Shown in pieces: positions 13,066 to 52,199 of a DNA stretch of 64,000 bases; the stretch's first letter is position 1, and each line of letters starts with the position of its first letter. The notes beneath the pieces are model-generated. The model worked only from the letters and a program-made list of their open reading frames with translations, was not told the origin of the DNA and did no database searches. This stretch comes from an uncultured Gammaproteobacteria bacterium (lineage in GTDB: Bacteria > Patescibacteriota > Patescibacteriia > Patescibacteriales > GWE2-39-37). Location of the stretch: the NCBI GenBank assembly GCA_964443495.1, contig CAYUCS010000001.1:405496-469495 (forward strand), written 5' to 3'. A program made the position numbers and the translations under genes.

Positions 13066-13136
13066 CGGGCTGTGGTATAGTGGTATTACGCACGCTTCGG
13101 GTGCGTGTAATCGCGGTTCGATTCCGCGCAGCCCGA
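13066..13136 (+). tRNA. tRNA-Pro (anticodon CGG)
   Basis: Manual cloverleaf: acceptor CGGGCTG/CAGCCCG, anticodon stem CACGC/GCGTG with loop TTCGGGT, T arm CGCGG-TTCGATT-CCGCG. No encoded CCA. Confidence 0.8.
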
Positions 13137-13137
13137 C

Positions 13138-15441: not shown

Positions 15442-16642
15442 ACATAATCAAAATTCACCGCTGGCTGACCGCATGCGACCGAAGACATTCGAGGGCTTCT
15501 TCGGGCAGGAGGACATAGTGGGCGAGGGCAAGCTCTTGAGGCAGGCGATCGAGACCGATCGGCTGCCTTCGATGATTTTCTGGGGTCCGCCCGGTTCGGG
15601 CAAGACCACGCTGGCTTATATCATCGCCCAGCAGACCAAGTCGCATTTCGTGCAGATCAGCGCCGTGACTAGCGGGGTCAAGGATTTGCGCCAGATCATC
15701 GAACAGGCGGCGGCAGATCGGGAAAAGGGAATCAGGACCATCCTCTTCATCGACGAGATCCATCGTTGGAACAAAGCGCAGCAGGACGGATTGCTGCCGC
15801 ACTTGGAAAAGGGCACGATCGTCCTGATCGGCGCCACGACCGAGAACCCGAGTTTCGAGGTGCGCGGCGCATTGCTGTCGCGCTGCCGCGTCTTCGTCCT
15901 GAAACAATTGGACGCGAACGATATCGCCGGCATAATCCGAGTCGCCCTGGCGGATAAAGAGCAGGGTTTGGGCAGGCAAAAAACAAGGATAAGCGACGAA
16001 GCTGTCTTGCGTATCGCCGAGCTGGCCAATGGCGACGCCCGCCGCGCCTTGAATGTGCTCGAGTACGCCGCAAGCGTCAGCAAGGATATCACGATCGAAA
16101 CGGTCAAAGAGGCCTTGCAGAAGTCCCATGTCTTTTACGACAAGAATGGAGAAGAGCACTACAACATAATTTCCGCGCTCCACAAATCGCTCAGGGGCTC
16201 TGATCCCGATGCCGCGCTTTATTGGCTGGCCCGGATGGTTGAGGCTGGCGAGGAGCCGCTTTACATCGCGCGGCGCTTGGTGCGTTTCGCCTCCGAAGAT
16301 GTCGGCTTGGCGAATTCGCGGGCGCTTGAGCAGGCGGTCGCAGCTTATCAGGCGTGCCATTTCATCGGCTTGCCGGAGTGCAACGTGATACTTGCGCAAG
16401 CGGTCGTATATCTGGCGAAGTGCCAGAAGTCGAACGAGCTATATGCCGCCTATAATCAGGCGGCAGCCGATGTGCGCCAGTATGGCAATCTGCCTGTGCC
16501 GCTGCACATCCGCAACGCCCCGACAAAACTGATGAAAGAATTGGATTACGGCAAGGGCTATAAGTATTCTCCTGATTACGGTTATAAGGAAGAGCAGGAG
16601 TATCTGCCGGACAAGTTGAAGGGCAGAAAATATCTGAAATAA
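15434..16642 (+). CDS. rarA: Replication-associated recombination protein A (AAA+ ATPase)
   Basis: Walker A GPPGSGKTTLA, Walker B ILFIDEIHRWNKAQQD, and the C-terminal MgsA-type region YDxxGEEHYNxISALHKSLRGSDPDAALYW. Confidence 0.9.
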   Translation: MPEHNQNSPLADRMRPKTFEGFFGQEDIVGEGKLLRQAIETDRLPSMIFWGPPGSGKTTLAYIIAQQTKSHFVQISAVTSGVKDLRQIIEQAAADREKGIRTILFIDEIHRWNKAQQDGLLPHLEKGTIVLIGATTENPSFEVRGALLSRCRVFVLKQLDANDIAGIIRVALADKEQGLGRQKTRISDEAVLRIAELANGDARRALNVLEYAASVSKDITIETVKEALQKSHVFYDKNGEEHYNIISALHKSLRGSDPDAALYWLARMVEAGEEPLYIARRLVRFASEDVGLANSRALEQAVAAYQACHFIGLPECNVILAQAVVYLAKCQKSNELYAAYNQAAADVRQYGNLPVPLHIRNAPTKLMKELDYGKGYKYSPDYGYKEEQEYLPDKLKGRKYLK

Positions 16643-16647
16643 AAAAA

Positions 16648-16676
16648 GCGCCGCCGGTTCGATACCGGCGGCTTTT
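16648..16676. terminator. Bidirectional rho-independent terminator
   Basis: A-run, then GCCGCCGGT-TCGAT-ACCGGCGGC, then TTTT, between the convergent rarA and DHDPS-family genes. Confidence 0.7.
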
Positions 16677-16684
16677 GATTGGTT

Positions 16685-17635
16685 TTAAATCAGGCAGTAG
16701 TGGCGGAGGATGAATTCGATCTGGAGGCGTTTTTCCGGCTCCATCGGGCAGAGCGGCGAGCGGAAACATTCGCTGAACTGGTTCGGGTAGATCATGGACA
16801 GGGCGGTCTTGAGCGGCAGAGGATTGATTTCGATCTCCATCGTCGCCATCAGCAGCTGCATCTCTTTGAAGGCTTTTTCTGCGTCGTCATAGCGCTCTTC
16901 GAGAAGCTGGGCGACCAGGTCTCTGATGCGCGGGAAAGCGAAATTGGCGATGACGGAGATGCCGCCGTCGGCACCGGCTCTCATGATGCGGTAGATGAAG
17001 CGGTCGTCACCGACCAGGACCGTAAAATCCGGCGGACGATCGGTGATGATTTTTTCGGCCTGGTCCGAATCGCCCGACGCCAGCTTGACCCCCTGGATAG
17101 TGCCTTCACGAGCCAGCTCCAGGATCGTTTCGGCATTGACATTGATGCCGGTGCGAGCGGGGTTGTCATACAGTATGATCGGGATTTCCTTCACTTCGCG
17201 CCTGATCGTGCGGTAGTGGTTCATGAGACCGCGCAGGGGCGGACGGATGTAATACGGCGTGACGACGAGCAACCCGTCGGCCTTGGCGAATTTGGCGGCG
17301 CGCGACAGCTCGATCGCTTCGATGGTGGAATTGGCCCCAGTGGCGGCCAAGACCGGAATCTTGCCTCCGGCGATCTTGACCGTTTCGGCGATCATTTTGA
17401 CATGTTCGGCGTAGTTGAGAGTCGGTGATTCTCCGGCCACATCGCAGGCGACCAGGAAATCAGGACCTTGTTCGACCAGACGTCGCAAATGGGTCTGGAA
17501 GGCGCTTAGGTTGATCTGCTCGGGGTACTCGATGGTGACTTTGCCCGGATCTGTCATGCGCTTGATCGGAGCGCCGCGATCGACGAACGGGGTGGGCAAG
17601 GTAACGCCAAGTCCTCGGAATTGTACTGTTTTCAT
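16685..17635 (-). CDS. Dihydrodipicolinate synthase/N-acetylneuraminate lyase-family class I aldolase
   Basis: 316 aa with GESPTL, TPYY and GVKLAS (Schiff-base lysine context). The overlapping plus-strand ORF 16679-17428 is treated as a shadow. Confidence 0.7.
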   Translation of the reverse strand: MKTVQFRGLGVTLPTPFVDRGAPIKRMTDPGKVTIEYPEQINLSAFQTHLRRLVEQGPDFLVACDVAGESPTLNYAEHVKMIAETVKIAGGKIPVLAATGANSTIEAIELSRAAKFAKADGLLVVTPYYIRPPLRGLMNHYRTIRREVKEIPIILYDNPARTGINVNAETILELAREGTIQGVKLASGDSDQAEKIITDRPPDFTVLVGDDRFIYRIMRAGADGGISVIANFAFPRIRDLVAQLLEERYDDAEKAFKEMQLLMATMEIEINPLPLKTALSMIYPNQFSECFRSPLCPMEPEKRLQIEFILRHYCLI

Positions 17636-17781
17636 GATGCCTCCTCGTGGCTTTTATAGTTTGCCTTTATTTTTACGGCTTGGTAAGGTACAATTAATAA
17701 TTGAAAGTCAAGATTAGCATATGGATATGTTTTAGGCAAGGCCTGATATTGGCCATTTTTCGAGAAATTTTCAATTTTCAA

Positions 17782-17801
17782 CCTGCCTGCCGGCAGGCAG
17801 G
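17782..17801. repeat. Perfect 20-bp palindrome CCTGCCTGCCGGCAGGCAGG (copy 2; palindrome extends to 24 bp, 17780-17803)
   Basis: Identical to 12983-13002. Sits in the 235-bp divergent intergenic region, flanked by AAATTTTCAAT at 17765-17775 and 17808-17818. Confidence 0.9.
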
Positions 17802-17870
17802 TTTCCTAAATTTTCAATGAAAATGCGATTCGGTTTGGAAATTAGAAGTTAGAAATTAAGAATAGATTTT

Positions 17871-19010
17871 ATGGATTACTATCAAAAATCGCTAGCGCTG
17901 CATAAGAAAAAGCGCGGCAAGATCGAAATAAGGTCCAAGGTGCCATTGAAAACCAAGGAGGATTTGTCCGTCGCCTACACGCCTGGCGTGGCTGAGGTCT
18001 GCCGGGCTATCGGCAAGGATGTGACCCAGTCCTGGCTTTTGACCAACCGTGCCAATCAGGTGGCCGTAGTATCTGACGGTACGGCCATTTTGGGATTGGG
18101 CGATCTTGGGCCCGAGGCGGCGATGCCGGTCATGGAGGGCAAGGCCATCATCTTCAAAGAGTTTGCCGGTATCGACGCGGTGCCGTTGTGCATCGATTCG
18201 ACCGTGCCGGAAGAAATAGTCAAATTCTGCAAGATGATCGCGCCAAGCTTTGCCGGAATCAATCTGGAAGACATCTCCGCACCGCGCTGCTTCGATATCC
18301 TGAAGCAGCTGGAAAAGGAATTGTCGATACCGGTATTCCATGACGATCAAGACGGGACGGCAATCGTCGTCTTGGCCGCCTTGATCAATGCCTGCCGCGT
18401 TACCGGCAAAGTAATGAAAGAATTGACCGTGGTGGTCAACGGCGCCGGTGCCGCGGGCATAGCCATCACCAAGCTGCTGCTGGAGCAGGGGGTCAAGGAT
18501 GCGATCCTGCTCGACTCTTCCGGCACCATCTATCGAGGCCGCCCGGGCATGAACGGCTTCAAGGTCGAGATTGCCAAGATTACCAACAGGAAAAAGGTCA
18601 AGGGCGGACTGAGCGAAGCCTTGGCCGGCGCCGATGTTTTTGTGGGCGTTTCAAAGGGCAATCTGGTTACCGAGAGCATGGTGCGAACCATGAATGAAAG
18701 CCCGATCATCTTCGCGATGGCTAATCCGGTTCCTGAAATAATGCCGGAGGCGGCCTATGCCGGAGGGGCCAGCATCGTCGGCACTGGACGCTCGGACCTG
18801 CCGAATCAGGTCAATAATGCTTTGGTCTTCCCAGGACTCTTTCGCGGCCTGCTCGACGGCAAGGCGCGAGGAGTTTCAACCAAGATGAAGCTGGCGGTCG
18901 CGGTCGCGGTCGCCTATACGGTCAAGCCGACCAAGGGCAAACTGCTGCCCGCCGTGACTGACAAGAAGGTGGTTAAGGCCATCCGTGACGTCGTAATAAA
19001 ATACAGCTGA
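17871..19010 (+). CDS. NAD(P)-dependent malic enzyme (short form)
   Basis: LSVAYTPGVAEVCRAI, VVSDGTAILGLGDLG, NLEDISAPRCF and VVNGAGAAG. Confidence 0.9.
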   Translation: MDYYQKSLALHKKKRGKIEIRSKVPLKTKEDLSVAYTPGVAEVCRAIGKDVTQSWLLTNRANQVAVVSDGTAILGLGDLGPEAAMPVMEGKAIIFKEFAGIDAVPLCIDSTVPEEIVKFCKMIAPSFAGINLEDISAPRCFDILKQLEKELSIPVFHDDQDGTAIVVLAALINACRVTGKVMKELTVVVNGAGAAGIAITKLLLEQGVKDAILLDSSGTIYRGRPGMNGFKVEIAKITNRKKVKGGLSEALAGADVFVGVSKGNLVTESMVRTMNESPIIFAMANPVPEIMPEAAYAGGASIVGTGRSDLPNQVNNALVFPGLFRGLLDGKARGVSTKMKLAVAVAVAYTVKPTKGKLLPAVTDKKVVKAIRDVVIKYS

Positions 19011-26913: not shown

Positions 26914-27459
26914 ATGTTCAATCTCCGCAACCAAAAATCAGGCTTCACTTTGATCGAGGTCTTGGTCGTTATCGCGATAATCGGTATCCTGTCCACTCTT
27001 GGCAACGCGGCATACTCCTATGCCAGGAACAAGGCCAAGTCGGTCAAGGCTGGTGCTGATGCGGAGCAGATAGAAAAGGCGATCAGCGTCATGGCCAACG
27101 ATACTTTGCTTTGGCCGGGCGGGCAAACGGTTGAAAAAGTCAATTTGGCGGCCGGTACGGAAATTTGTAATTATCCAGCCGATAATTGCGCGTATGATCT
27201 GGCTAATCCGTCTGCCGGACTGGTTGCCACAGACGGTTCATTCCTCGGATGGAACGGACCGTACATGTCCAGCATCCCCAAGGATCCTTGGGGCAACCAA
27301 TATTTTTTCGATACGCATTACCAGATCCAGCTCGACGGCTCGCCGTGTGACGGGGAGAGCACTTGCGTGCCGGCAGCAGTAGTCGGTTCTTACGGCCCGA
27401 ACGGTGTCGGCAACAGGCTGTATGATAGCGACGATATCATAAGGATAATGGCTAAATAA
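26914..27459 (+). CDS. Prepilin-type N-terminal domain protein, GspG-like pseudopilin/pilin
   Basis: Prepilin signal MFNLRNQKSG|FTLIEVLVVIAIIGIL with E at +5. PKDPWGNQYFF resembles the GspG signature. Confidence 0.8.
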   Translation: MFNLRNQKSGFTLIEVLVVIAIIGILSTLGNAAYSYARNKAKSVKAGADAEQIEKAISVMANDTLLWPGGQTVEKVNLAAGTEICNYPADNCAYDLANPSAGLVATDGSFLGWNGPYMSSIPKDPWGNQYFFDTHYQIQLDGSPCDGESTCVPAAVVGSYGPNGVGNRLYDSDDIIRIMAK

Positions 27460-27474
27460 ATAAATTCAATAATT

Positions 27475-28776
27475 ATGGCTAAAATCGATAAAATCCACGC
27501 CCGGGAGATATTGGATTCGCGCGGCAACCCAACGGTTGAAACCAAGGTCTATCTCTCTGACGGTACCGTAGCCAAGGCTAGCGTGCCTTCGGGCGCTTCT
27601 ACCGGGGTTCATGAAGCTTGGGAGCTGCGCGACGGTGATAAGCAGCGTTATGAAGGCCAGGGAGTTTTGCAGGCCGTGAAGAATGTAAATGAATCCATCA
27701 GCAAGGCCGTGATCGGGATGGAGGCCGATGATCAGGAGGCGCTCGATCACGCCATGATAAAATTAGATGGCACAGAGAATAAATCGAAGCTTGGCGCCAA
27801 CGCCATACTTAGCGTTTCCCTGGCTTGCGCCAGGGCAGCGGCAATGTCACGGAAGCAGGAACTCTATGCCTATCTGGCTGAAAGCTTCAGTTTTTCGAAG
27901 GATTACCGCCTGCCAACGCCGTCATTCAATATCTTTAACGGCGGCAAGCATGCCGATACCAACCTTGATTTCCAAGAGTTCATGATCCTTCCCTTGAGCC
28001 AGGTCAGTTTCAAGGAGAAAGTGAGGATGGGGTCGGAGATCTTCCATAGCCTGGGCCGCGTGCTTAAATCTGCCGGTTTCGATACCGATGTCGGCAACGA
28101 GGGCGGCTACGCCCCGGATATCGTTTCCAGCATCCAAGCCATCGAGTTGATCGTGGCTTCGATGATCAAAGCCGGGTACAAGCCGGGCAAAGAGATCGGA
28201 CTTGGCATCGATGTCGGTTCATCGCAACTATTCAATCCGGAGACGGGCAAATACATCTTCAAGCTGGACCAGGCGACTTTTTCCAATAGCACCTTGGTCG
28301 GCCTCTATCACGAGTGGTGGCGCAAGTTCCCGATAATCTCGATCGAGGACGGCTTGGCTGAAGACGATTGGGCTGGCTGGCGCGATCTGACCAAGGAGCT
28401 GGGCGGCGAAATGCTTCTGATCGGCGACGACTTGTTCGTGACCAATACGGCCCGTTTGCGCAAGGGCATCAAGGAAAAGGTGGCCAATGCTATCCTGATC
28501 AAAGTCAATCAGGTCGGCACCCTGACCGAAACCATCGAGTGCATCAAATTAGCCCAGAAGCATAAGTACAAGATCATGGTCTCGCACCGTTCCGGCGAGA
28601 CTTCGGACGATTTCATCGCCGACCTGGCGGTGGCGGTCGGAGCCGAATACATCAAGTCCGGCTCACTGTCTCGCAGCGAGCGTTTAGCCAAGTATAATCG
28701 TTTGATGGAAATCGAAGATATCATCGAATCGCAAACCAAACCAAAGACAAAACATGCAAAAGTTAAAAGTAAGTAA
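27475..28776 (+). CDS. eno: Enolase
   Basis: ILDSRGNPTVE, SGASTG, IKVNQVGTLTET and SHRSGETSD. Confidence 0.95.
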   Translation: MAKIDKIHAREILDSRGNPTVETKVYLSDGTVAKASVPSGASTGVHEAWELRDGDKQRYEGQGVLQAVKNVNESISKAVIGMEADDQEALDHAMIKLDGTENKSKLGANAILSVSLACARAAAMSRKQELYAYLAESFSFSKDYRLPTPSFNIFNGGKHADTNLDFQEFMILPLSQVSFKEKVRMGSEIFHSLGRVLKSAGFDTDVGNEGGYAPDIVSSIQAIELIVASMIKAGYKPGKEIGLGIDVGSSQLFNPETGKYIFKLDQATFSNSTLVGLYHEWWRKFPIISIEDGLAEDDWAGWRDLTKELGGEMLLIGDDLFVTNTARLRKGIKEKVANAILIKVNQVGTLTETIECIKLAQKHKYKIMVSHRSGETSDDFIADLAVAVGAEYIKSGSLSRSERLAKYNRLMEIEDIIESQTKPKTKHAKVKSK

Positions 28777-30334
28777 GCCGACTATTCTCGTCATACTTGA
28801 CGGCTGGGGTATTGATCAGGCGAATCGCGGAAACGCAATCACTTTGTCAAAGACTCCGAATCTTAATTACCTCTTAAAGAACTATCCCAGCACGCAGCTG
28901 GGCGCTTCGGGGCGTTTTGTCGGTCTGCCGAACGGCCAAGACGGCAACAGCGAGGCTGGCCACATGAACCTCGGGGCCGGTCGCATCGCCGAGCAGGATG
29001 CTGTCCGCATCAGCCGCAACATAACCAACGGCACTTTTTTCAAGAATCCGGCTTTTCTCGAAGCAGTCAATCACGCCAAGGAGAACGGCGGCAACGTCCA
29101 TCTGATGGGCATGCTCGGGAACAATATGACAGCTCACAGCGATCCTGATCACCTGCTGGCCCTGATTGCCTTCTTGAAAAAAGAGGGGGTGCAAAGGATC
29201 AATCTGCATCTTTTCACGGATGGCCGCGATTCGCCTAAGTATGCCGCCATAAAGCTGATGCGCCAGCTTGAGAAGTCATTTACCGGCGTTGAAACTATCA
29301 ATACGGTCATGGGCCGCTTTTACGCCATGGACCGCAAGAAAGTCTGGCAGCGGACCGAGATGGCGTACAATGTCTTGGTCGAAGGCGGCTGCGAGGCTGC
29401 TGAGTGCCGCTGGTCATTGAATCCGGAAGAGGCGATTACCGAAGCTTATAATCGCGGCGAGAGCGATGAATTCATCCTGCCGTACATCATCGGACGTCCA
29501 GGCAAGCCTTATCCTCGCATTGCTGACGGAGACAGCGTCATTTTCTTCAACTTGCGTTCCGACCGCGCTCGACAGCTGGCTAAAGCCTTCGTCCAGCCGA
29601 ATTTCAACGAGTTGAATCCGGGATCGTTCAAGCGGCGGGTCGTTTTCAAGAACTTGTGCTTCGTGGCCATGACCGACTTCGGTCCGGATTTGGATAGCAT
29701 TCTTTCGGCATTTCCGAGTCCTGACCTGACTGATACCTTGCCGATGCAGCTTAAGGAGAGAAGTCAGCTGTATATCGCTGAAACCGAAAAATATGCGCAC
29801 GTCACATACTTTTTCAATGGCGGATATTCCGATCCGGTCGCGGGTGAATCACGGATCCTGGTGCCGTCGCCGGATGTCCGGTCTTATGATGAAACGCCGG
29901 AAATGAGCTCAAAGGAGTTGGTCAAGGAAGTCGTCAGCAACCTGAAAAAGAAGAAATTCGATTTCACTGCCTTGAATTTCGCCGCACCGGACATGATCGG
30001 CCACACCGGAAATCTTGAGGCGGCGATCAAATGCTGCGAAGCCGTCGATGGCTATGTCGGCAAGCTGGTCGAGGCGTACCACAAAATCGGCGGCACGCTC
30101 ATTATTACGGCTGACCATGGCAATATCGAGCGCATGATCAATCTCCAGACCGGCGAGATAGACACCGAGCACACCACCAACCCCGTGCCGTTCATCTTGG
30201 TCAACCAAGAATTAAGGAATCGGGCAAAGCTTCGTAACGATGGCGTACTGGGCGATGTGGCTCCGACTATCCTGGACCTGTTCGGACTCCCGCTACCTAA
30301 GGCGATGGCCCGTAAAAGCTTATTGTTAAGATAA
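28754..30334 (+). CDS. gpmI: 2,3-bisphosphoglycerate-independent phosphoglycerate mutase, paralog 1 (more divergent)
   Basis: ILDGWG, GNSEAGHMNLGAGR, FTDGRDSP, TEKYAHVTYFFNGG, PDMIGHTG and TADHGN. Overlaps eno by 23 nt. Confidence 0.85.
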   Translation: MQKLKVSKPTILVILDGWGIDQANRGNAITLSKTPNLNYLLKNYPSTQLGASGRFVGLPNGQDGNSEAGHMNLGAGRIAEQDAVRISRNITNGTFFKNPAFLEAVNHAKENGGNVHLMGMLGNNMTAHSDPDHLLALIAFLKKEGVQRINLHLFTDGRDSPKYAAIKLMRQLEKSFTGVETINTVMGRFYAMDRKKVWQRTEMAYNVLVEGGCEAAECRWSLNPEEAITEAYNRGESDEFILPYIIGRPGKPYPRIADGDSVIFFNLRSDRARQLAKAFVQPNFNELNPGSFKRRVVFKNLCFVAMTDFGPDLDSILSAFPSPDLTDTLPMQLKERSQLYIAETEKYAHVTYFFNGGYSDPVAGESRILVPSPDVRSYDETPEMSSKELVKEVVSNLKKKKFDFTALNFAAPDMIGHTGNLEAAIKCCEAVDGYVGKLVEAYHKIGGTLIITADHGNIERMINLQTGEIDTEHTTNPVPFILVNQELRNRAKLRNDGVLGDVAPTILDLFGLPLPKAMARKSLLLR

Positions 30335-30337
30335 TAT

Positions 30338-31936
30338 ATGTTAAGCAAAGATCAGCAATTAAAGAAACCGAAACCCGTCGTCTTGGCCGTTCTTGACGGT
30401 TGGGGTATCGTGCAGCCTTACAGCGGCAACGCTATCAGCCAGGCTAACATTCCGACCATGAAGGAACTGATCGCCAAATATCCTGCCATGACCATCCGTG
30501 CCTCCGGCGAGGCGGTCGGATTGCCCTGGGGCAAGGATGGCAACAGCGAGGTCGGCCATCTGAATCTGGGCATGGGCCGGATCATGTATCAGGATCTGCC
30601 TAGGATCAATAAATCGATAAATGACAACAGTTTCTATCAGAATCAAGCCCTGATCGATGCGATCAAGCACGTCAAGAGCAATAGTTCCAAACTCCATGTC
30701 ATGGGACTGGTTTCGAACGGAGGCGTCCATGCCTCTATCGAGCATCTGCAGGCCTTGCTCGTACTGGCGAAGGAACAGGGAGTGGAGCAGGTTTATATCC
30801 ACGCCATCCTGGACGGCAGGGATACGCCCTATAACAGCGGTTTGAATTATCTTAAGGATATCACCCGCACGATCGCCGAATACGGTGTCGGCAAGATCGC
30901 TACCATATCCGGACGCTTCTACCCTATGGATCGAGACAATCATTGGGATCGCATCGAGAAAGCTTATCTCGCGATGACCGCGGGTCAGGGCAATAAGGCC
31001 AGTGATCCGGTCATGGCCATCGAGGATAGCTATGGCAAGAAAATATACGATGAGGAATTCGTGCCCACGGTTATCGAACAGGGAGGCAAGCCGGTCGGCT
31101 TGGTCGAGCAAGGCGATTCATTGATATTTTTCAATTACCGTCCCGATCGCGCCAGGCAGATTACTAAGGCCTTTGCCTTGCCGAGCTTCGACAAATTCAG
31201 CCGTCCCAAATATCTGACAGACCTGCTCTTCGTTTGCTTTACTGAGTATGAGAAAGATATTCCGGTCGAGGTAGCCTTTCCTCCTGAAGAGATCAAGGAT
31301 ACGTTGGGTGAAATCATTGCCAATGCCGGATTGAAACAGCTGCGAATCGCCGAAACCGAGAAGTACGCCCATGTCACATATTTTTTCAATGGCGGCAGGG
31401 AAACCAAATCGGAGGGCGAAACGCATGATCTCGTGCCTTCGCCGCCGGTGCCTAGTTATGACATGAAGCCGGAAATGTCGGCCTTCGAGGTGACTGACAA
31501 GCTTATCAAGGCTATCAATGAAGATCTCTATGATTTCATCCTGGTAAACTTTGCTAACGCTGACATGGTCGGGCATACTGGAAATATCCGAGCCACAAGT
31601 CAGGCATGCGAGGCGGTCGATAAATGCGTCAAGCGCCTGGTCGATGCCGTGCTGCCGAAGGGCGGAGTGATAATGATTACGGCTGATCACGGCAACGCCG
31701 AGGCCAAGTTTAACATGCAGACTGGCAGCATCTCGAAAGAACATACCGCCAACCCCGTTCCATTCATTATCGTGGGCAAAGAATTCGAGGGCCGACGGAT
31801 CGGCGGCCAAGACGCGTTCGGCGGCGACTTAAGCCTTGTCCAGCCGCAGGGAATCCTGTCCGACGTCGCTCCGACCGTCTTGCGCATATTGGGATTAGAG
31901 AAGCCAGAAGCGATGACCGGCAGGTCACTGGTCTGA
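30338..31936 (+). CDS. gpmI: 2,3-bisphosphoglycerate-independent phosphoglycerate mutase, paralog 2
   Basis: VLDGWG, GNSEVGHLNLGMGR, NGGVHAS, ILDGRDTP, TEKYAHVTYFFNGG, NFANADMVGHTG and TADHGN. Confidence 0.9.
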   Translation: MLSKDQQLKKPKPVVLAVLDGWGIVQPYSGNAISQANIPTMKELIAKYPAMTIRASGEAVGLPWGKDGNSEVGHLNLGMGRIMYQDLPRINKSINDNSFYQNQALIDAIKHVKSNSSKLHVMGLVSNGGVHASIEHLQALLVLAKEQGVEQVYIHAILDGRDTPYNSGLNYLKDITRTIAEYGVGKIATISGRFYPMDRDNHWDRIEKAYLAMTAGQGNKASDPVMAIEDSYGKKIYDEEFVPTVIEQGGKPVGLVEQGDSLIFFNYRPDRARQITKAFALPSFDKFSRPKYLTDLLFVCFTEYEKDIPVEVAFPPEEIKDTLGEIIANAGLKQLRIAETEKYAHVTYFFNGGRETKSEGETHDLVPSPPVPSYDMKPEMSAFEVTDKLIKAINEDLYDFILVNFANADMVGHTGNIRATSQACEAVDKCVKRLVDAVLPKGGVIMITADHGNAEAKFNMQTGSISKEHTANPVPFIIVGKEFEGRRIGGQDAFGGDLSLVQPQGILSDVAPTVLRILGLEKPEAMTGRSLV

Positions 31937-31941
31937 CATTT

Positions 31942-34900
31942 TTGCATAAATATTTTATGACTAGCAAAGCGGAAAAATTATTCATCCTCCCGGTTACGGC
32001 CTTGTTAGCCCTCTGCATCGGCTGGGCCATCGCCGCCCCTTCGCCGGACGCCATCGGCGTCCGCGTCGCCCCTAACCCCAAGCATTACTCCGCCGCCCGC
32101 TGGTACCAGACCCAGGGGTTCAAAGGCTCCCCTCAGGCCCTCATCGTCGACGGCTACGAAGCCATCCGCGACGGCCGCACCGTCTACATCGACGTGGCCA
32201 ACGTGGTCGAGGCGGCCCCGGCCAACAACGAGCTCTCGACCAACGACCAATTCTTCACCAATATCTTCATCATCTCCTACAACCAGGACGCCGAGAAGGC
32301 CACCGAGGACATCTTCGGCCAGATCCTGGCCAATTGGAAGTTCAACAACAACATCCTCAAGGCCGGCGCCTGCAGCCAGACGGCCACCCAATCCTGCACC
32401 TATCCCCCTGCCTGCATCGCTCCCGACTGCCCGACCTGCGCCAAGGACGAATACTGCGTCAGCTCCCATGAGGTCTCGGTCCGCGACACCAAGCGCCTCG
32501 CCGACCTCGCCGACCTGAACGACCTGCTCGATGCCTACAAGGCCAAGAACGGCGGCCTCTGTCCCAAGCTCGAATCCGGCTCCTACCTCCCGAACAAATC
32601 CGTCTCCACCTGGCCCTCCTGGCAGGAGACCCTAGGCAAGGCCCTGGGCGCCAACCTGCCGTTCGACCCCATCAACAAGATGGGCGCCTGCGCCGGGTTC
32701 AACGCCAAGACCTGCTGGAACGAGGCCACCCGCGCCTTCGCCGATCCCACCCCGGCCGACGCCAACTTCGACCTGCCTGACGGCAGCCGGGCGTATGTCT
32801 ACATGTCCAGTCCCGACGGCAGAAGCTGCGGCTTTTTCGTCACTACCGAGTCCGGCCTCATCTGTAATGCCGCGGGCACTTGCACGGTCGGGAATAATCT
32901 GGGGACGCCTAATCCTTTTTCCGTTTTGCCTGGCGCGATCGTTTCCGTCGGCGGCGCTACGAATACTCCGCCAACCCTCGTTTGCGGCAGCATGTCTTCT
33001 TTTCCCAAGGATCCATTTGGCGGCTTCGTTTCCGCTTTTGATATCGATCGCGATCCGATCAGCGGCTGGCAGGTCGAGCCGCTTGCGCCGGCTAATTGGG
33101 CCGCCTGGCAGGCGGCAGGCTGGGTTTGGCAGGGCGGACAAACAGGTTTGGTCTTTGCCAATACGGCCGTAGCCAATCAGAAAAAGCTTACGGCCCAGCA
33201 AGGAGGAAACACCGGCAATTATCAAGTCCGTGTCACCGTGTCGGATGGCAGCGCGACTTCAAGCAAGATATGCAACGTTTCCATGGGCGCCTCCTTGCCC
33301 ATAATCCAGGCCTTGAACGTCAAGGTCAAGGCTGGAAATATGGCCACGACTACGATTTTCGGTTACGAGACCAACAAGAACTACGGCCTATCATTTACAT
33401 TCACTGGCGATAGCGGCGGAGGGCCGATCGCCAATTTCTTGACATGCACCTCAACTAGCCCGATCCTGGGCGAACCTGACGGAAAATACAATTGCTACAT
33501 CAACCAGAAAATAACCTATCAGCCGGGGGTCTATAACGTGACAGTAACTGGCATCGACACTCAGGGGGATACGGCCATGACCAGTTTCATTTTCGATATT
33601 ACGAACACGCCGCCCCGGGTTGACGCCGTGGTTTGTGATCCGGTCATACGCGCGTTAGGTGGCTACTCTTGTACTATCACCGGCGTTGATGATGAGGGCA
33701 ACGCGATTACTAACTATTCGGTGGTCAATCTGCCTCCTGGACTGGCCGTCTCCACCGCCGGAAATGTCGGCACCATCAGCGGCATTCCAGCCCTTGTCGG
33801 CGCCGGTCCGCATAATCTGTCGATTACTGCAACCGACGAATATGGCTTCACCGGTCCTGCCACTACTTTCAACTTGCAAGTCAATAATTTCTGCGGCGAT
33901 AATGTCCGCCAGCAGCCAAACACCGAAGGAGCAGGCGGCTCGCCTGCCGGAACGGAGCAATGCGACGGTACGGACGGAGTGGCGGCCAACCCGCCGCTGA
34001 GCAATGCCGGGCGCCAGTATGGCTGCACCACCGTCGGCACCAACGTCCAATTGACCGGCAACCAATTCACCGGAACCGATGCCTCTTGCGGCCTTGCCGG
34101 ACCGAATGTCACCGGATCATGCAACGGGGCCTTTTGGACCTATAATTTAGTCACGCCCGCCGTCAGCCAATTTTATCTCACGGTTGAAACCAGCAATTGG
34201 GGCACCTCGCCTTACGGTTCGCTCGAGGCTTTCGCGCCTGCCGGCGGCGAGGAAAACGTCTGCCCGCAGGCAGGCGTCCAGCATCATGTCCGCGTGCTGG
34301 TAGACGGCAATTACAAGGGCGAGTTCTGCGCCAATGCCGTCGCCCCAGGCGGCGCCAATGTCTTCAGCAATGTCGCCCTCGGGGCCCTGTTCGGCGGCAA
34401 TCATGTCTTGCGCCTCGAATGGGACAACGACTGGACGTACAACCCGGATGCTATTTGGGGAACGGCCGATGATGCTGATTCGAATATTAAGATTTATACT
34501 ATCAAAGCCGAGGACAAGCCATGTCCTGAGGGCGGCAACTGCGCCGGAACCTGCATGCAGTTCGGCGGCTATTGCGGCGACGGCATCGTCCAGGCCGAAT
34601 ACAACGAGAACTGCGAGGATGCGATCACCGATTCGGCGCAGCGATGCGGCATCCTGAATTCGAACACTATCCTTGACTCGGATGGCAGCGCTTTCGATTG
34701 CACGACCCTGTCGAACAACACTATCGGCCAGACAGGCATCGACAGCCTTTATACTGCTCTTTGCGACTCCTGCCAGATCGGCTGCCAAGCCGACCCGAAC
34801 AGGAACAAGTTGGGCATGGGCTGCTATCTGGGACAAGCCAGCCCGAACGCAGCCCCGCCGGCCGGCTCGTGCCAGAAGGGCGTCTGGGTCTGCCAAGCCA

Positions 34901-35409
34901 ATGCGATGATATGTCAGGACGTCTTTCCGTCGCCTAAATTCGATTATTGCTGCGCGGGCCAGGATAACCTTATCAAGACCAATGCTATCGGGCCCTTCAC
35001 GATCGTCAGGGCGGATGCCAGTGATTTGACCGTGCCTTCGTTCACGGGCGTATATGCGAACGTGGGCACCACCTTCAATTATTATAATTGCGACCAAGTC
35101 TGCCAAAAGGTGGGCAAGGTCTGCATCGGCGTCGGCTTGAATGACCACACCGCCAATGCCTGCAAATCGATAGTGCATGATGTCGGCGGCGCTTGCAGCT
35201 GTTCTAACGGCATCAACCAATACGATGACGATTGCAAGTCTAAGTTCAGTCTGGCCGGCGCCAGTACGGTCGTGTCGTTAGCCGCCGCTGACTGGGGTTA
35301 TGCCTGGGACTGGGTGTTCGGTTACTTGGGCGTCTGCAATGACTGCTCAGCCATCGGCGGATTGAGCCAGTGGTATCATGTGGGCGAAACGGCCTGTTAT
35401 TGCCAATAG
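31942..35409 (+). CDS. Large secreted cysteine-rich surface protein (Ig-like and cysteine-rich repeat regions)
   Basis: 1155 aa with a signal peptide. Contains a putative Ig-like segment (VVNLPPGLAVSTAGNVGTISGIP...LSITATDEYG) and CGDN.../CGDGIVQAEYNENCED cysteine-rich repeats. Minus-strand ORFs over it are shadows. Confidence 0.7.
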   Translation: MHKYFMTSKAEKLFILPVTALLALCIGWAIAAPSPDAIGVRVAPNPKHYSAARWYQTQGFKGSPQALIVDGYEAIRDGRTVYIDVANVVEAAPANNELSTNDQFFTNIFIISYNQDAEKATEDIFGQILANWKFNNNILKAGACSQTATQSCTYPPACIAPDCPTCAKDEYCVSSHEVSVRDTKRLADLADLNDLLDAYKAKNGGLCPKLESGSYLPNKSVSTWPSWQETLGKALGANLPFDPINKMGACAGFNAKTCWNEATRAFADPTPADANFDLPDGSRAYVYMSSPDGRSCGFFVTTESGLICNAAGTCTVGNNLGTPNPFSVLPGAIVSVGGATNTPPTLVCGSMSSFPKDPFGGFVSAFDIDRDPISGWQVEPLAPANWAAWQAAGWVWQGGQTGLVFANTAVANQKKLTAQQGGNTGNYQVRVTVSDGSATSSKICNVSMGASLPIIQALNVKVKAGNMATTTIFGYETNKNYGLSFTFTGDSGGGPIANFLTCTSTSPILGEPDGKYNCYINQKITYQPGVYNVTVTGIDTQGDTAMTSFIFDITNTPPRVDAVVCDPVIRALGGYSCTITGVDDEGNAITNYSVVNLPPGLAVSTAGNVGTISGIPALVGAGPHNLSITATDEYGFTGPATTFNLQVNNFCGDNVRQQPNTEGAGGSPAGTEQCDGTDGVAANPPLSNAGRQYGCTTVGTNVQLTGNQFTGTDASCGLAGPNVTGSCNGAFWTYNLVTPAVSQFYLTVETSNWGTSPYGSLEAFAPAGGEENVCPQAGVQHHVRVLVDGNYKGEFCANAVAPGGANVFSNVALGALFGGNHVLRLEWDNDWTYNPDAIWGTADDADSNIKIYTIKAEDKPCPEGGNCAGTCMQFGGYCGDGIVQAEYNENCEDAITDSAQRCGILNSNTILDSDGSAFDCTTLSNNTIGQTGIDSLYTALCDSCQIGCQADPNRNKLGMGCYLGQASPNAAPPAGSCQKGVWVCQANAMICQDVFPSPKFDYCCAGQDNLIKTNAIGPFTIVRADASDLTVPSFTGVYANVGTTFNYYNCDQVCQKVGKVCIGVGLNDHTANACKSIVHDVGGACSCSNGINQYDDDCKSKFSLAGASTVVSLAAADWGYAWDWVFGYLGVCNDCSAIGGLSQWYHVGETACYCQ
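32005..32820 (+). other. Intragenic high-GC3 segment (compositional outlier) in the 5' quarter of the 31942-35409 gene
   Basis: By eye, about nine codons in ten end in C or G: aac/gac/ttc/atc/tac are used almost to the exclusion of aat/gat/ttt/att/tat. Usage reverts abruptly near 32815. Confidence 0.7.
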
Positions 35410-35415
35410 AAATAT

Positions 35416-37059
35416 ATGGAAAAAAATAAGAAAATCATAATTGCCGGGTCGGTCGCGGTCGTCGTGCTCCTGGCTTGGCTTACTTATTATCTTGCCAGCC
35501 ATAATGCGCCGGAAGGGGCCGTTGTGCCGCCGGCCGGCACCTCCACGCCGCCGACAGCCGTCGTGCCGCTGACGAAGCCGGCGAAAGTGCCGATCCAGAT
35601 GGCTGAAGCGAAGCAGCCGTCTCTGGAAGATTGTGCCAAACTTGACGACAAAGCCAAGCAGGATTGCGTCAACAGATTCCGCGCCAGCCAAGCCTTCCTC
35701 TCTCGCGACCCTCGCAAGTGCCTCGAAGTCGATGATTATACGTTGCGCAACCAATGCCTTTACAACAGCCTGGCGCCCCTCAAGAAGGCGGATGATTGCG
35801 AGCGAATCGCAGACAAGAACTTCCGCGAACGCTGCGAGGAGGACATCGGCATGACGGTCCAGGGGGCTGATTATTGCAATAATTTCGATGATGAACCGAG
35901 CGAGAAACAGGAATGCGTCGATCGCGTGACGGCCATCGAAGCCTCCAAGCGGGGCGATATCCAGGCGTGCGCGGGCATCAAGACTCTTGAGTACAGCTTT
36001 TTGTGCGAGATAAATTCGATGAGACGCAACGGCAATGTTTGCGAGGAAATAAAGGACATGAAAAAGAAGAATTTGTGCATTTCCCGAGTGGACTTTTCCA
36101 AGGCGAAGACCAAGGATGATTGCGACAAGCTGCCGGATGAAACGTACAAGAAGGTCTGCAATAACGTCCTCGGAACCACCTTGGATGACAAGACGCCTTT
36201 CGATTCCGACGGCGACGGACTCAATGATTACCGCGAGCTTTGGATCAGTACCGATCCGTTCAATCCGGATTCCGACGGCGACGGCCTCAATGATAATGCC
36301 GAGTACAACGTCAATTTTACCGATCCAGCCGATCCTGACTCGGATGATGACGGAATCAAGGATGGCGCCGAGATCGCGAGGGGGACCAATCCGAAAATAC
36401 CCAATGCGCTTACTGCCAATAAGGTCGACACGGATGAGGACGGCCTGTTGAACAAGGACGAAGTCCGGTGGGGCACCAATGCCGCGAATGCGGACACCGA
36501 CGGTGATGGCGTCATGGACGGGACCGAGATCGGCGATGCGACCGACCCGCTGGGGCCGGGCTGGAAGCAGGATTCCGACAAGGATGGCCTTATAGATGCC
36601 GATGAGAAATTTTACAAGACAGATCCGCTCAATGCCGATTCCGATGGCGACAAGGCTAAGGACGGCAGCGAAGTCAAGTCCGGCAGCGATCCGCTCGGCA
36701 AGGGCTTGATGGATTTCGATCAGGACGGTTTGAGCGACGGCGAAGAGGCGAAGAAAGGTACCAATCCGGCGCTGAAAGACAGCAACGGCGATGGCATCAG
36801 CGATTCCGAGTCGCTGCGCCGGAAAATCGATCCGATCAGCGATGATCCTGATAAGGACGGCCTTTCGAACGCCTTTGAAATAAAAATCAAGACCGACCCC
36901 TTCAGTCCTGATTCCGATAAGGATGGACTGAATGATTTTGACGAGGCGGAAAAATATCACACCGACCCGCTTAAGAGAGATACTGACGGCGACGGCTTCG
37001 GCGATCATGATGAGATAAAGAAAGGGTTCAATCCGCTTTCGAAGATAAATAAGAAATAA
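35416..37059 (+). CDS. Membrane-anchored protein with an array of thrombospondin-type-3-like calcium-binding repeats
   Basis: N-terminal TM helix. About 12 or more motifs of the DSDGDGLND / DTDGDGVMD / DSDKDGLID type lie between roughly 36190 and 37010. The 553-aa minus-strand ORF is a shadow of the GAY-rich repeats. Confidence 0.75.
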   Translation: MEKNKKIIIAGSVAVVVLLAWLTYYLASHNAPEGAVVPPAGTSTPPTAVVPLTKPAKVPIQMAEAKQPSLEDCAKLDDKAKQDCVNRFRASQAFLSRDPRKCLEVDDYTLRNQCLYNSLAPLKKADDCERIADKNFRERCEEDIGMTVQGADYCNNFDDEPSEKQECVDRVTAIEASKRGDIQACAGIKTLEYSFLCEINSMRRNGNVCEEIKDMKKKNLCISRVDFSKAKTKDDCDKLPDETYKKVCNNVLGTTLDDKTPFDSDGDGLNDYRELWISTDPFNPDSDGDGLNDNAEYNVNFTDPADPDSDDDGIKDGAEIARGTNPKIPNALTANKVDTDEDGLLNKDEVRWGTNAANADTDGDGVMDGTEIGDATDPLGPGWKQDSDKDGLIDADEKFYKTDPLNADSDGDKAKDGSEVKSGSDPLGKGLMDFDQDGLSDGEEAKKGTNPALKDSNGDGISDSESLRRKIDPISDDPDKDGLSNAFEIKIKTDPFSPDSDKDGLNDFDEAEKYHTDPLKRDTDGDGFGDHDEIKKGFNPLSKINKK

Positions 37060-38025: not shown

Positions 38026-38035
38026 AATATTGATT

Positions 38036-39916
38036 ATGCCATCAAACAAGGAGCGGAAAAAAAATTTCTGTTGCGACTACTCACAGCTGATCAGCTCTGC
38101 AGCTGTGATTTTTGTAGTTTTGGATCGCAATGCCAGAGTCGTCGAACTAAATCAGTTCGCGCGCAGCTTCCTGGGGTACGAAAACGATGAAATTCTGGGG
38201 CTCGATTGGTTCGAAACCTGCGTGCCCGATAGCAAGGAAATCAAGAAGGATTTCAAAGCCATTGTCGGCGGCAAGTCCGCTCCGCCTCCGTTTTTCAAGG
38301 GCAAGGTGGTCGCGAAAGACGGCCGCGTGAGAACGGTCAGCTGGGTGACAACTTTCATCAAGGACTCGAGCGGACGGATCGAATATGATATCAATCTCGG
38401 CTATGACGTAACTGAAGCGGAGGCCGAGGAGAGGCGCCATATCGCCACGACCCGGCTGATGGACTCCATTTTTCACACCTCGCCTCAGGCTATCATGTCA
38501 ATCGATCGGAATATTGTCGTAGATAACTGGAACGAGTCGGCCGAACGGATTTTCGGCTATTCCAGGAAGGAGGTCTTAGGCAAGATTTCCCCCACCGTCC
38601 CCAAGGGTTCATATGAGGCGGTCAAAAAGATGTATGCCAAGGTCTTTGACAAGGGCGAAAGCCTGAGTTATGAGGGGTTGCGCAAGCGGCGGGACGGCAC
38701 TGATGTGCATGTCGCAGCTTATGCCGGGCCGATCAGGGATGACTCCGGCAAAGTGATCGGCGCGATGGTTCTGGTCGAAGATATCACTAAGCACAAGCAA
38801 ATCGAGAAGACCAATGCATATTTGCGCCAGGGCATCGAGAAATCGGACAGCGCCATCTTTCTGACCGACAATCAAGGAAAAATCACTTACGTCAATCCCG
38901 CTTTCGAAGCGCTTTACGGCTATAGCTCTTCGGAGGCGGTCGGCAAGACATCGAGATTCATCAAATCTGACAGGCAGAGCGATAAGGAATATGATGCCCG
39001 CTGGCGCTCGCTCATGTCGGGGAAGAATGTCGCCGGAGAGATATATAATAAGGCTAAAGACGGCCGAGAGGTCATTGTCGCCAATTCGACCAACGCTGTC
39101 ATTGACGATTACGGCAGTATCATCGGATTCATTGCCATTCAGCACGACATGACAGATGACGTCAACAGTAAGAAGAAGTTGGTTGAGCTGACCGAATTGA
39201 ATCAGCGAATCATCGATAGTTCGCCCTTGGGCATATTCATCCTTGATCGGGATGGCGTAATCGAGTATGTGAACGATAAGATGCTCGAGATTTCCGCCAG
39301 TCCCAAGGAAAAGCTGATCGGCTACAACTTGCTGAGTAACGAGAATTACATCCGACTCGGCTTGAGCCGGCGGATCATGGACTCCATCCATCAAGGAACT
39401 TCTTTCGAAACGGAGCCGATGAAATATCGCTCGCTTTTCGGCAAGAAAGAGACGTACCGCATCTTTTCCGGAGCTCCGATCAAGTCTTCAGACGGAAAAT
39501 CAAGCAAGGTTCTGATTACTATCAGGGATGTCTCTGAGTTGGTCAGCCACAATGAGGAACTCGAACGGTTCAATAGTTTGATGGTGGGCAGGGAACTCAA
39601 GATGGTGGAATTGAAAAGCCAGGTCCATCAGCTCAAGAGCCGGCTGGCCAGCATTGAATCGAAGAAAAAGCAGGAGTTTGTCTTGCCGTCGTTCGTCTCT
39701 GACGAAACTGCCGCCGTGCAGCTCGACGAGCTCGTGCAGGCCATCGATCGTGTTATTGGCGACTACGGAAAATTCTTTTCCGCGGACTTGCCTGAGTCGG
39801 AGCTCTGGTTCTTGGAGAAATACCAGATCCGCCATTCGATCAGGAATTTGATCAATATGAATATCGAATCGAAAAAATCATTAGCAAGTTTGGTAAAAAA
39901 GCATGAAAGATCATAA
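38036..39916 (+). CDS. Four-PAS-domain sensor protein with C-terminal coiled coil and no recognisable output domain
   Basis: Four PAS-like cores (VLDRNARVVELNQFARSFLGY, SIDRNIVVDNWNESAERIFGY, LTDNQGKITYVNPAFEALYGY, ILDRDGVIEYVNDKMLEISAS), then GRELKMVELK. No HisKA, GGDEF or HTH motif. Alternative TTG start at 38030. Confidence 0.75.
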   Translation: MPSNKERKKNFCCDYSQLISSAAVIFVVLDRNARVVELNQFARSFLGYENDEILGLDWFETCVPDSKEIKKDFKAIVGGKSAPPPFFKGKVVAKDGRVRTVSWVTTFIKDSSGRIEYDINLGYDVTEAEAEERRHIATTRLMDSIFHTSPQAIMSIDRNIVVDNWNESAERIFGYSRKEVLGKISPTVPKGSYEAVKKMYAKVFDKGESLSYEGLRKRRDGTDVHVAAYAGPIRDDSGKVIGAMVLVEDITKHKQIEKTNAYLRQGIEKSDSAIFLTDNQGKITYVNPAFEALYGYSSSEAVGKTSRFIKSDRQSDKEYDARWRSLMSGKNVAGEIYNKAKDGREVIVANSTNAVIDDYGSIIGFIAIQHDMTDDVNSKKKLVELTELNQRIIDSSPLGIFILDRDGVIEYVNDKMLEISASPKEKLIGYNLLSNENYIRLGLSRRIMDSIHQGTSFETEPMKYRSLFGKKETYRIFSGAPIKSSDGKSSKVLITIRDVSELVSHNEELERFNSLMVGRELKMVELKSQVHQLKSRLASIESKKKQEFVLPSFVSDETAAVQLDELVQAIDRVIGDYGKFFSADLPESELWFLEKYQIRHSIRNLINMNIESKKSLASLVKKHERS

Positions 39917-51275: not shown

Positions 51276-52199
51276 ATGGCTAACGACAAGAAAACAAAAG
51301 GCAGAATCACCATGGCGGCGGCTTTTTTGCTAGTGTCCGCCATCTCGGCATTCGCCGGGTGGTCCTTTGCCGCGCAAAAGCCCGCTGCCAAGACTCAGCA
51401 GGGTGCTTACCTCAGCCCGATAAATAATTTCATCGACAAGGGCGACTTGATAGTCAACATCCAGCCCCTTCGTGACAAGATGCAGGAAATAGGCGCAGAT
51501 CCGAACATTTCGGTGTATTTCGAGTTTCTGAACACGGGTGCCAATATCGCCGTGAACAAGGACACCGAATTCTGGCCGGCCAGCTTGATGAAAATCCCGA
51601 TAGCCATGGCCGTAATGAAGAAGATCGAGAACGGGGAATGGAGGATGTCCAATGAACTGATCCTGCTCGAGCAGGACAAGGACAGCCACTTCGGCGATCT
51701 TTACAAGTCATCGGCTAACAGCCGCTTCACGATCGAGAAGCTGCTTGACGAGATGCTTATCGAATCGGACAACACGGCTCGGACGATATTCATGCGCAAT
51801 CTGGAAAAAAGCGATATCGAAGAAGTCTTGAACCATCTGGGCATCGAGGACATCTTCAATACCGACCAGCAGGTCAGCACGAAAAAGTATTCGATATTTT
51901 GGCGTGCACTCTACACATCGAGCTATCTGTCGCCGGAGCATTCCGATCGGCTCATAAGAATCATGGCCAAGTCCGTCTCCAGCGAATATCTCGCTAGTGG
52001 CCTGCCTCAAGAAACCGAATTCAGCCATAAGATCGGAGTAATATACGATAGCAAGATCTATGCCGACTCCGGCATCGTTTACCTTCCCAAGCGCCCATAC
52101 ATCCTGACAGTGATGGTTAACGGCAAGGATAAGGAAGCGGCTGAAAAAATAATGTCTGACATATCGAAGACGGTGTATGAATATATTGCCAGCTACTAA
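51276..52199 (+). CDS. Class A beta-lactamase-like serine hydrolase (membrane anchored)
   Basis: SxxK as ASLMK, SDN as ESDNTA, and a KTG-like HKIG. N-terminal anchor present. Confidence 0.6.
   Translation: MANDKKTKGRITMAAAFLLVSAISAFAGWSFAAQKPAAKTQQGAYLSPINNFIDKGDLIVNIQPLRDKMQEIGADPNISVYFEFLNTGANIAVNKDTEFWPASLMKIPIAMAVMKKIENGEWRMSNELILLEQDKDSHFGDLYKSSANSRFTIEKLLDEMLIESDNTARTIFMRNLEKSDIEEVLNHLGIEDIFNTDQQVSTKKYSIFWRALYTSSYLSPEHSDRLIRIMAKSVSSEYLASGLPQETEFSHKIGVIYDSKIYADSGIVYLPKRPYILTVMVNGKDKEAAEKIMSDISKTVYEYIASY

Follow-up and report, generated by a model that had tools for sequence, protein, structure and literature searches.

A sharply bounded, C-rich N-terminal tract in a surface-protein gene of a Falkowbacteria-like bacterium is shared with a non-orthologous family member

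A raised G+C content at third codon positions (GC3) is a documented mark of gene-conversion tracts, and GC3-rich tracts have been described in the mammalian pairs BMP8A/B, DDX19A/B and TUBG1/2 as well as in histones and Hsp70 (PMC2720389). In bacterial core genes a link between recombination and GC3 has been reported under the hypothesis of GC-biased gene conversion (PMC4450053), and gene conversion has been described in antigen families of M. tuberculosis (PMC13061034). Here we analyse a 64,000-nt stretch of contig CAYUCS010000001.1, from now on called the window, whose host is a Falkowbacteria-like bacterium of the candidate phyla radiation (CPR). It contains, at 31957–35409 on the forward strand, a gene which according to its open reading frame (ORF) and sequence encodes a secreted cysteine-rich surface protein of 1150 amino acids (aa). 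The N-terminal part of this gene is saturated with C-ending codons up to a sharp boundary, and the gene appears to be a recombination mosaic in which this step would represent the breakpoint pair of a gene-conversion tract within a paralogous family.

As in the mammalian tracts, the concerted segment has a higher GC3 than the divergent remainder and the breakpoints lie at the change in composition, whereas the locus differs in belonging to a CPR bacterium, in the very large effect (0.92 compared with 0.68), in four-fold degenerate sites that are specifically rich in C and in a second copy known solely from a metagenome. With the bacterial core genes it shares an excess of G- and C-ending codons, including codons that are not the commonest in the genome, and more changes from A/T to G/C (W→S) than in the opposite direction (S→W). 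The core-gene work is, however, statistical, treats whole genes and reports modest differences (PMC4450053), while here a single sharply bounded tract is seen, the exchange would be ectopic between paralogues and not allelic, and there is an additional bias of C over G. The locus resembles mosaics of bacterial surface proteins in that a multi-copy secreted family is involved whose homologous segments are copied between members, but in contrast to the antigen families the homogenised part is a conserved N-terminal domain with a codon signature, and both the family and this domain are uncharacterised. The local departure of GC3 and codon usage from the host genome is also found in transferred "alien" DNA, from which this segment differs by having the same affinity as the rest of the gene, unchanged G+C at first and second codon positions (GC1 and GC2) and no known donor. 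The question whether recombination itself shapes base composition in bacteria has so far been argued mainly from genome-wide statistics. Here a mapped tract coincides within a few bases with a rise of GC3 from 0.68 to 0.92 that a close orthologue lacks, and population data for this locus could tell apart the contributions of mutation bias, biased repair and codon selection.

Codon usage along the gene and in its orthologues

The likely start codon is the ATG at 31957, and the closest orthologues (P0100 and P0101, see below) begin at the equivalent ATG, while an in-frame TTG at 31942 would give a protein of 1155 aa. A probable Sec signal peptide (MTSKAEKLFILPVTALLALCIGWAIA, cleaved before AP) at 31957–32034 on the forward strand was recognised from the translation, with the cleavage site judged by eye, and its first ~17 codons are of ordinary composition. 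They are followed by a module saturated with C-ending codons at 32009–32790 (forward strand), delimited by composition, blastn and the synonymous (dS) and nonsynonymous (dN) divergence, which is common to a metagenome contig (L008, positions 1186–1968). Over codons ~19–279 (nt ~32009–32790, counted over 32011–32792) GC3 is 0.916 compared with 0.675 in the rest of the gene (Fisher p 9e-17), and the frequency of C at third positions (C3) is 0.701 compared with 0.449 (p 7e-13).

When a sliding frame of 50 codons was used, GC3 stayed at 0.86–0.96 and C3 at 0.66–0.74 over codons ~26–275 and then fell to ~0.6–0.7 and ~0.3–0.5, respectively. Maximum-likelihood change-points were placed at 31981 and 32793 for A+T at third positions (AT3, log-likelihood gain 39) and at 31981 and 32862 for C3 (gain 33). 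Elsewhere in the window, 1281 frames of 100 codons taken from the other 49 ORFs gave a GC3 of 0.69 ± 0.06 (maximum 0.84) and a C3 of 0.38 ± 0.07 (maximum 0.60), and the top 23 of all 100-codon frames lie inside the biased segment. Local GC in the module is 0.62–0.66 compared with ~0.53, with a GC skew of -0.25. GC1 and GC2 are almost flat (module and rest of gene 0.56 and 0.51 for GC1, 0.48 and 0.475 for GC2), and the four-fold sites hold 0.78 C and 0.17 G in the module compared with 0.49 and 0.24 in the remainder of the gene. The codons preferred in the module depart from the commonest ones of the genome for Asp, Asn, Tyr, Leu, Pro and Ser.

Codon counts in the module were 17 AAC and 2 AAT, 15–17 GAC and 2 GAT, 9–10 TTC and no TTT, 14 ATC and no ATT, and 8 TAC and 1 TAT, with GCC making up 34–35 of the 36–37 codons of its family; downstream of the step AAT reappears in 36/68 cases, GAT in 28/53 and TAT in 20/32. 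The original prediction, an abrupt codon-usage switch within the reading frame with near-exclusive use of aac, gac, ttc, atc and tac and an elevated local GC, is thus borne out by the sliding GC3 profile, the change-points and the codon counts alike. Its placement needs correction at both ends. The break had been put at 32815 but lies at ~32790, followed by a weakly C-rich shoulder at 32793–32862 (forward strand), past the shared tract and still in the folded N-terminal domain, where C3 is 0.68 compared with 0.56 in the orthologue. The bias had also been described as beginning after the signal peptide, whereas the clean run of C starts at ~32009, inside it, ~8 codons before the probable AIA-AP cleavage site (by eye).

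When the non-biased part of the gene was used as query, two relatives matching over the full length were recovered from Candidatus Falkowbacteria, namely P0100 (1149 aa, 88% aa identity, locus L004) and P0101 (63%, locus L005). The gene order pgk, pilin, eno, two genes for cofactor-independent phosphoglycerate mutase (iPGM), surface-protein gene and thrombospondin-type-3-repeat (TSP3) gene is common to the window and both loci. L004, with an overall GC similar to that of the window, shows no step (GC3 0.65 and C3 0.42 in the N-terminal domain, 0.65 and 0.43 afterwards), and none was found when it was looked for in the L005 orthologue. Since the close orthologues lack the step, the bias would have arisen after the split from the L004 lineage. 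The protein is 90% identical to P0100 in the N-terminal domain and 87% elsewhere, with a dN of 0.055 and 0.083, respectively. At third positions the module differs from L004 by 52 T→C and 7 C→T changes, whereas outside the module the two directions are balanced (85 and 74), and S→W changes affect 7.6% of sites in the module compared with ~27% in the rest, which makes them 3.5-fold rarer. G→C changes also exceed C→G changes in the module (15 and 4, p 0.02), and amino acid replacements towards GC-richer codons number 13 against 5 there (two-sided p 0.10) and 32 against 29 in the rest.

A tract in common with another member of the family

A metagenome scan with the N-terminal domain led to contig L008 (3.4 kb), which carries a gene with a different signal-peptide start and a different body past the N-terminal domain, and an N-terminal domain equally rich in C (GC3 0.91, C3 0.69). 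The upstream flank of L008 holds a 3' end of the P0106/P0107 type and a TSP3 gene, the downstream one a body of the P0108 type, and both are of ordinary GC3 (0.55–0.67). Alignment by blastn gave 91% identity between the window and L008 over 32009–32909 and ~94% at the nucleotide level inside 32009–32790; when followed along the gene, identity climbs from <0.6 to above 0.9 between 31981 and 32032 (to 0.9–1.0 at 32002–32032) and collapses at ~32776–32790. Inside the module dS is 0.21 and dN 0.019, while over the 100 codons that follow dN reaches 0.51 and synonymous divergence is saturated. As a strong shared codon bias alone could inflate identity, the rare codons were checked separately, which revealed that 28 of the 44 non-preferred codons of the window are the same in L008, where 9.3 would be expected by chance; altogether 218 codons of the module are identical, with 183 expected. 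Sharing of rare codons so far above chance shows that the nucleotide sequence is common by descent and not the product of convergent codon bias.

A four-taxon comparison was performed with the window gene, L008 and the sister-genome genes P0100 and P0106, the last, after removal of its LamG insert, being an imperfect stand-in for the L008 orthologue. Inside 32040–32766, 46 informative sites group the window with L008 against 6 that follow orthology, whereas outside this region orthology is supported by 5 sites up to 32008 and by 60 (window with L004) from 32814 on. The 5' breakpoint interval is accordingly 32008–32040, between the last site joining the window to its orthologue and the first joining it to L008 and with L008 identity starting at 32009, and the 3' interval is 32766–32814, between the last window–L008 site and the first of the orthology sites, with the AT3 change-point at 32793 inside it. 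The composition step and the breakpoints coincide at both edges. Inside the tract the window gene and that of L008, although not orthologous, resemble each other more than their orthologues, and outside it the sites group by orthology, as expected of gene conversion. Identity profile, dS/dN and four-taxon sites agree with the proposal that the gene was made mosaic by recombination, its sharp edges being the breakpoints. We infer that the carriers of the window and of L008 are paralogues in one genome or species.

At the protein level the tract respects no boundary, as it begins within the signal peptide and ends ~25 residues short of the end of the fold, and its limits would therefore follow the nucleotide homology between family members.

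Origin of the C-richness

The reading that we favour, with a probability of roughly 0.58, is that a tract of ~780 nt in the N-terminal domain was swapped between family members and became C-rich through a fixation bias within the lineage, with no import from a distant high-GC source. According to this proposal the first ~280 mature residues would form a conserved domain heading a family with varied C-terminal parts, and the tract (32009–32790) would have been exchanged by homologous recombination, in the form of gene conversion, between at least two non-orthologous members, ending on either side where nucleotide homology runs out, that is within the signal peptide and, at the other edge, ~25 codons short of where the folded domain ends. 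With the exchanged version saturated in C-ending codons, the breakpoints would show as an abrupt switch in an otherwise ordinary gene. The saturation itself would have grown in this lineage because codons ending in G or C, and above all in C, were preferentially fixed in the segment under exchange. The source of this bias may be GC-biased gene conversion, possibly aided by selection in favour of C-ending codons, and the composition would not have come from a distant high-GC organism.

The raised GC3 in the tract, the predominance of W→S over S→W changes and the near-saturation of the former fit GC-biased conversion. We put forward only tentatively that ectopic conversion among copies of the N-terminal domain acted as a biased drive, by which the segment came to consist almost wholly of C- or G-ending and mostly C-ending codons although codon bias in the genome is otherwise weak. 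If true, this one locus with its sharp limits would be a natural example of how recombination can drive the base composition of bacterial DNA, and the asymmetry of C over G would point to a component of repair or selection beyond the standard model of GC-biased conversion. GC-biased conversion, being a strand-symmetric repair bias, predicts no preference between G and C.

Several observations weigh against the favoured reading. The symmetry of G and C is missing, with 15 G→C changes against 4 C→G and four-fold sites at 78% C and 17% G, and to account for this excess some selection for C-ending codons or an asymmetry of repair has to be added. The increase in GC3, +0.24, is far above the genome-scale effects reported for bacteria, and other genomes with several N-terminal-domain paralogues, including L015 (the P0107 locus), have no comparable enrichment. 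L008 is a metagenome contig of 3.4 kb whose origin in the same genome as the window is presumed and which could be a repeat-induced chimera, although its own paralogue-specific shoulder is C-rich too. The C-rich region of the window is nested in a longer and more gradual one in L008, which extends to both sides, and this suggests that the window gene may be the recipient of an already C-rich sequence; a tree of the N-terminal domain, which sets the window and L008 together beside P0100, points in the opposite direction, with the type of the window gene as the possible source. A third and more divergent paralogue type, L009, is C-rich solely in its most conserved 5' ~50 codons, which is in keeping with the favoured reading, but what had been taken for a clear partial conversion tract in it was downgraded, as 4 concerted sites stand against 5 orthology sites.

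A different origin of the C-richness, which we regard as unlikely, is that the C-rich version of the domain came from an unsampled close relative of higher GC by homologous recombination and then spread among the members. The atypical composition with its sharp edges, the codon choice unlike that of the genome for the six amino acids named above, the absence of any window gene resembling the module in codon use, the wide spread of GC in the clade (0.41–0.55) and the nesting of the window tract inside the longer C-rich region of L008 would all suit such an import. However, searches of genomes, metagenomes, viruses and proteins brought up no donor, an absence from databases that is not proof; the scan of GTDB genomes for a donor gave distant relatives alone, at 34–38%, and the viral scan no matches. 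The module and the rest of the gene are equally near to their counterpart in the sister genome (90% aa for the module), GC1 and GC2 hardly change, and a tract from an orthologous donor would have no reason to end where the homology between paralogues ends. L008, the only other known carrier, has flanks of ordinary GC3, and the residual A/T-ending codons are ~2 times commoner where L004 also has A/T, a difference that is not significant. Of the earlier proposal that the N-terminal domain was acquired by recombination from a higher-GC donor, the recombination is supported and the foreign donor is not: relatives are the same on both sides of the step, GC1 and GC2 stay flat and the searches gave no donor. 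The best hits of the two halves might have come from different lineages, but the full-length orthologues from Falkowbacteria are common to both. The case warns that a compositional island inside a gene is not necessarily foreign DNA.

Codons ending in C are read by G34 tRNAs, and translational selection might have favoured them for speed or accuracy in making a cysteine-rich N-terminal domain, independently of recombination. We consider this improbable as the whole explanation, even though the preference for C over G at four-fold sites and the excess of G→C changes fit it better than GC-biased repair. Among the codon families that of proline has moved least towards C, with 33% of its codons still CCG, and the window has a single tRNA gene, for tRNA-Pro(CGG), at 13066–13137. 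In some relatives the N-terminal domain is mildly enriched in C3 (L005a +0.09, L001 +0.08), and owing to the skew towards C the module, with its 65% GC, is predicted to fold as mRNA no more strongly than the remainder of the gene. Against selection, the 88% identical orthologue does not have the bias although it sits in the same operon, the N-terminal domain of L009 is not enriched past its 5' end, the edges of the bias track DNA homology and not the protein domain, and the rare codons common to L008 reflect descent and not convergence. The glycolytic genes carry no such bias either: the C-fraction for Asn, Asp and Tyr is 0.37–0.54 in gap, pgk, eno and the pilins compared with 0.89 in the module, a partial test as the window holds no ribosomal-protein genes. 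Selection on expression had been judged the less likely cause from the beginning, and the orthologues without a step, together with the lack of any gene of similar codon use in the window (gap, pgk and eno included), agree with that judgement.

Still less probable is an assembly artefact, in which the window contig, L008 or both would be chimeras formed through conserved N-terminal-domain k-mers of co-occurring strains. The module is a multi-copy repeat at which contigs of relatives break (that of L015 ends 59 codons into the next paralogue), and the 5' junction lies in a stretch conserved across all family members, but the protein encoded in the window belongs to a single orthologue type over its whole length, an independent assembly contains the same C-rich sequence at 6% divergence, the paralogue-specific flank of L008 itself is C-rich, and a chimera would still leave the C-rich source unexplained.

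It is hardly credible that a second function of the segment (an overlapping or antisense gene, the target of a diversity-generating retroelement (DGR) or a structured RNA or DNA element) constrains the third positions: the long antisense ORFs at 32005–32469 and 32632–33225 are the by-product expected from the lack of A at third positions and translate into low-complexity sequence rich in Gly, Ala, Asp and Val, synonymous sites still diverge between the window and L008 (31 differences, dS 0.21) with a sense dN/dS of ~0.09, and the imperfect 28-nt inverted repeat that brackets the segment, with apparent covariation in L004, reaches only p ~0.05–0.12 when compared with shuffled sequence and has no equivalent in L005a or L008. 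A DGR template would be a further copy of the module, and none was detected in the 64 kb by blastn or tblastn, reverse transcriptase not being searched for. Overlapping antisense gene, DGR target and mRNA structure were set aside on ORF translations, dS/dN, the lack of a template and folding.

The inverted repeat lies at 31964–31991 and 32902–32929, is 75% complementary and has the core CGGAAAAA/TTTTTCCG in the window and ATAGAAAAA/TTTTTCTAT in L004; its position on both sides of the segment is probably due to chance.

A second multi-copy segment is present in the window, in a gene of a pilus operon encoding 1825 aa (52177–57654), where a perfect (100%) in-frame tandem duplication of 1559 nt was found at 52381–53939 and 53968–55526 with a period of 1587 nt, or 529 codons. 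The duplicated unit has a GC3 of 0.74 and a C3 of 0.53 compared with 0.57 and 0.36 in the non-repeated part, with G3 unchanged and a drop at the end of the repeat. The duplication could be very recent, under homogenisation or an assembly artefact. A weak and much milder parallel to the shift in C3 described above is possible; against it, the GC3 of the duplicated unit is only slightly over the genome average.

The N-terminal domain, its family and the neighbouring genes

The biased segment falls in a conserved N-terminal alpha/beta domain at 32014–32871 (forward strand), which was recognised from an AlphaFold2 model (predicted local distance difference test score 90.3, predicted template modelling score 0.87) and a HMMER scan. 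When the model was compared with the PDB by Foldseek no match was obtained at E<0.1, and scans with Pfam and NCBIfam matched no family over the domain. At E≤1e-10 the HMMER scan gave 1298 representative clusters, in almost all of which the match covers residues ~25–300, and the carriers are proteins of 500–1900 aa whose C-terminal parts contain He_PIG, LamG, VWA, NHL and other domains. With a confidently modelled fold that has no counterpart in the PDB, and with its presence in so many clusters, the domain may represent a new family among the surface proteins of the CPR. It appears to be a conserved N-terminal handle to which varying C-terminal parts are attached, so that the "exchangeable tip" suggested by the original prediction is reversed: the N-terminal domain is constant across ~1300 clusters and the C-terminal parts differ.

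A protein search with the N-terminal domain only missed the 88% orthologue, P0100 being recovered with a C-terminal query. An early impression that the relatives are mostly stand-alone proteins of ~300 aa was misleading and was abandoned, as most of these are N-termini of large proteins or fragments. The N-terminal domain of more than 1000 CPR protein clusters would evolve in concert between members, which matters both for annotation and for assembly, where contigs break and may be mis-joined.

In related genomes two to four genes with the N-terminal domain form arrays, most of them followed by a TSP3-repeat gene. Such TSP3_bac genes are found behind orthologues or paralogues in L004, L005, L012, L013 and L014, and accompany most, not all, large members. 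In the window the partner gene is located at 35416–37059 on the forward strand and its product, a TSP3 (Ca-binding) repeat protein, gives partial NCBIfam matches to CglD/MtsD repeats, far under the cut-offs. This arrangement suggests that the N-terminal-domain protein and the TSP3-repeat protein form a two-component surface module.

Within the non-biased body of the surface protein a He_PIG (putative Ig) domain was identified with Pfam PF05345 at 33649–33885 (forward strand; 34.1 bits compared with a gathering cut-off of 24), which corresponds to aa 570–648 of the translation from TTG and lies outside the biased segment. In P0106 (L012, 10001–13684) and P0107 (L015, 10001–13087) a LamG (Laminin_G_3) insert of ~210 aa was found in the middle of the N-terminal domain, after the motif NWKFNNNI. 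L008 is without this insert although its flanks resemble the P0106 and P0107 genes.

The tandem iPGM paralogues are located at 28754–30334 and 30338–31936, and the surface-protein gene starts 20 nt past the second of them; the pair is kept in L004 and L005. In L004 fpg follows directly on the shared gene order, while in L005 a paralogue with the N-terminal domain (1038 aa) and a gene of 156 aa intervene before fpg. A type IV pilin-like gene at 26914–27459 is placed between pgk and eno, an arrangement also kept in L004 and L005. Another compositional departure was seen in L004, where a PAS sensor gene at 16058–17938 has a GC of 0.40 and a GC3 of 0.44 among neighbours with a GC3 of ~0.62, while its counterpart in the window (38030–39916) is ordinary, with a GC3 of 0.66.

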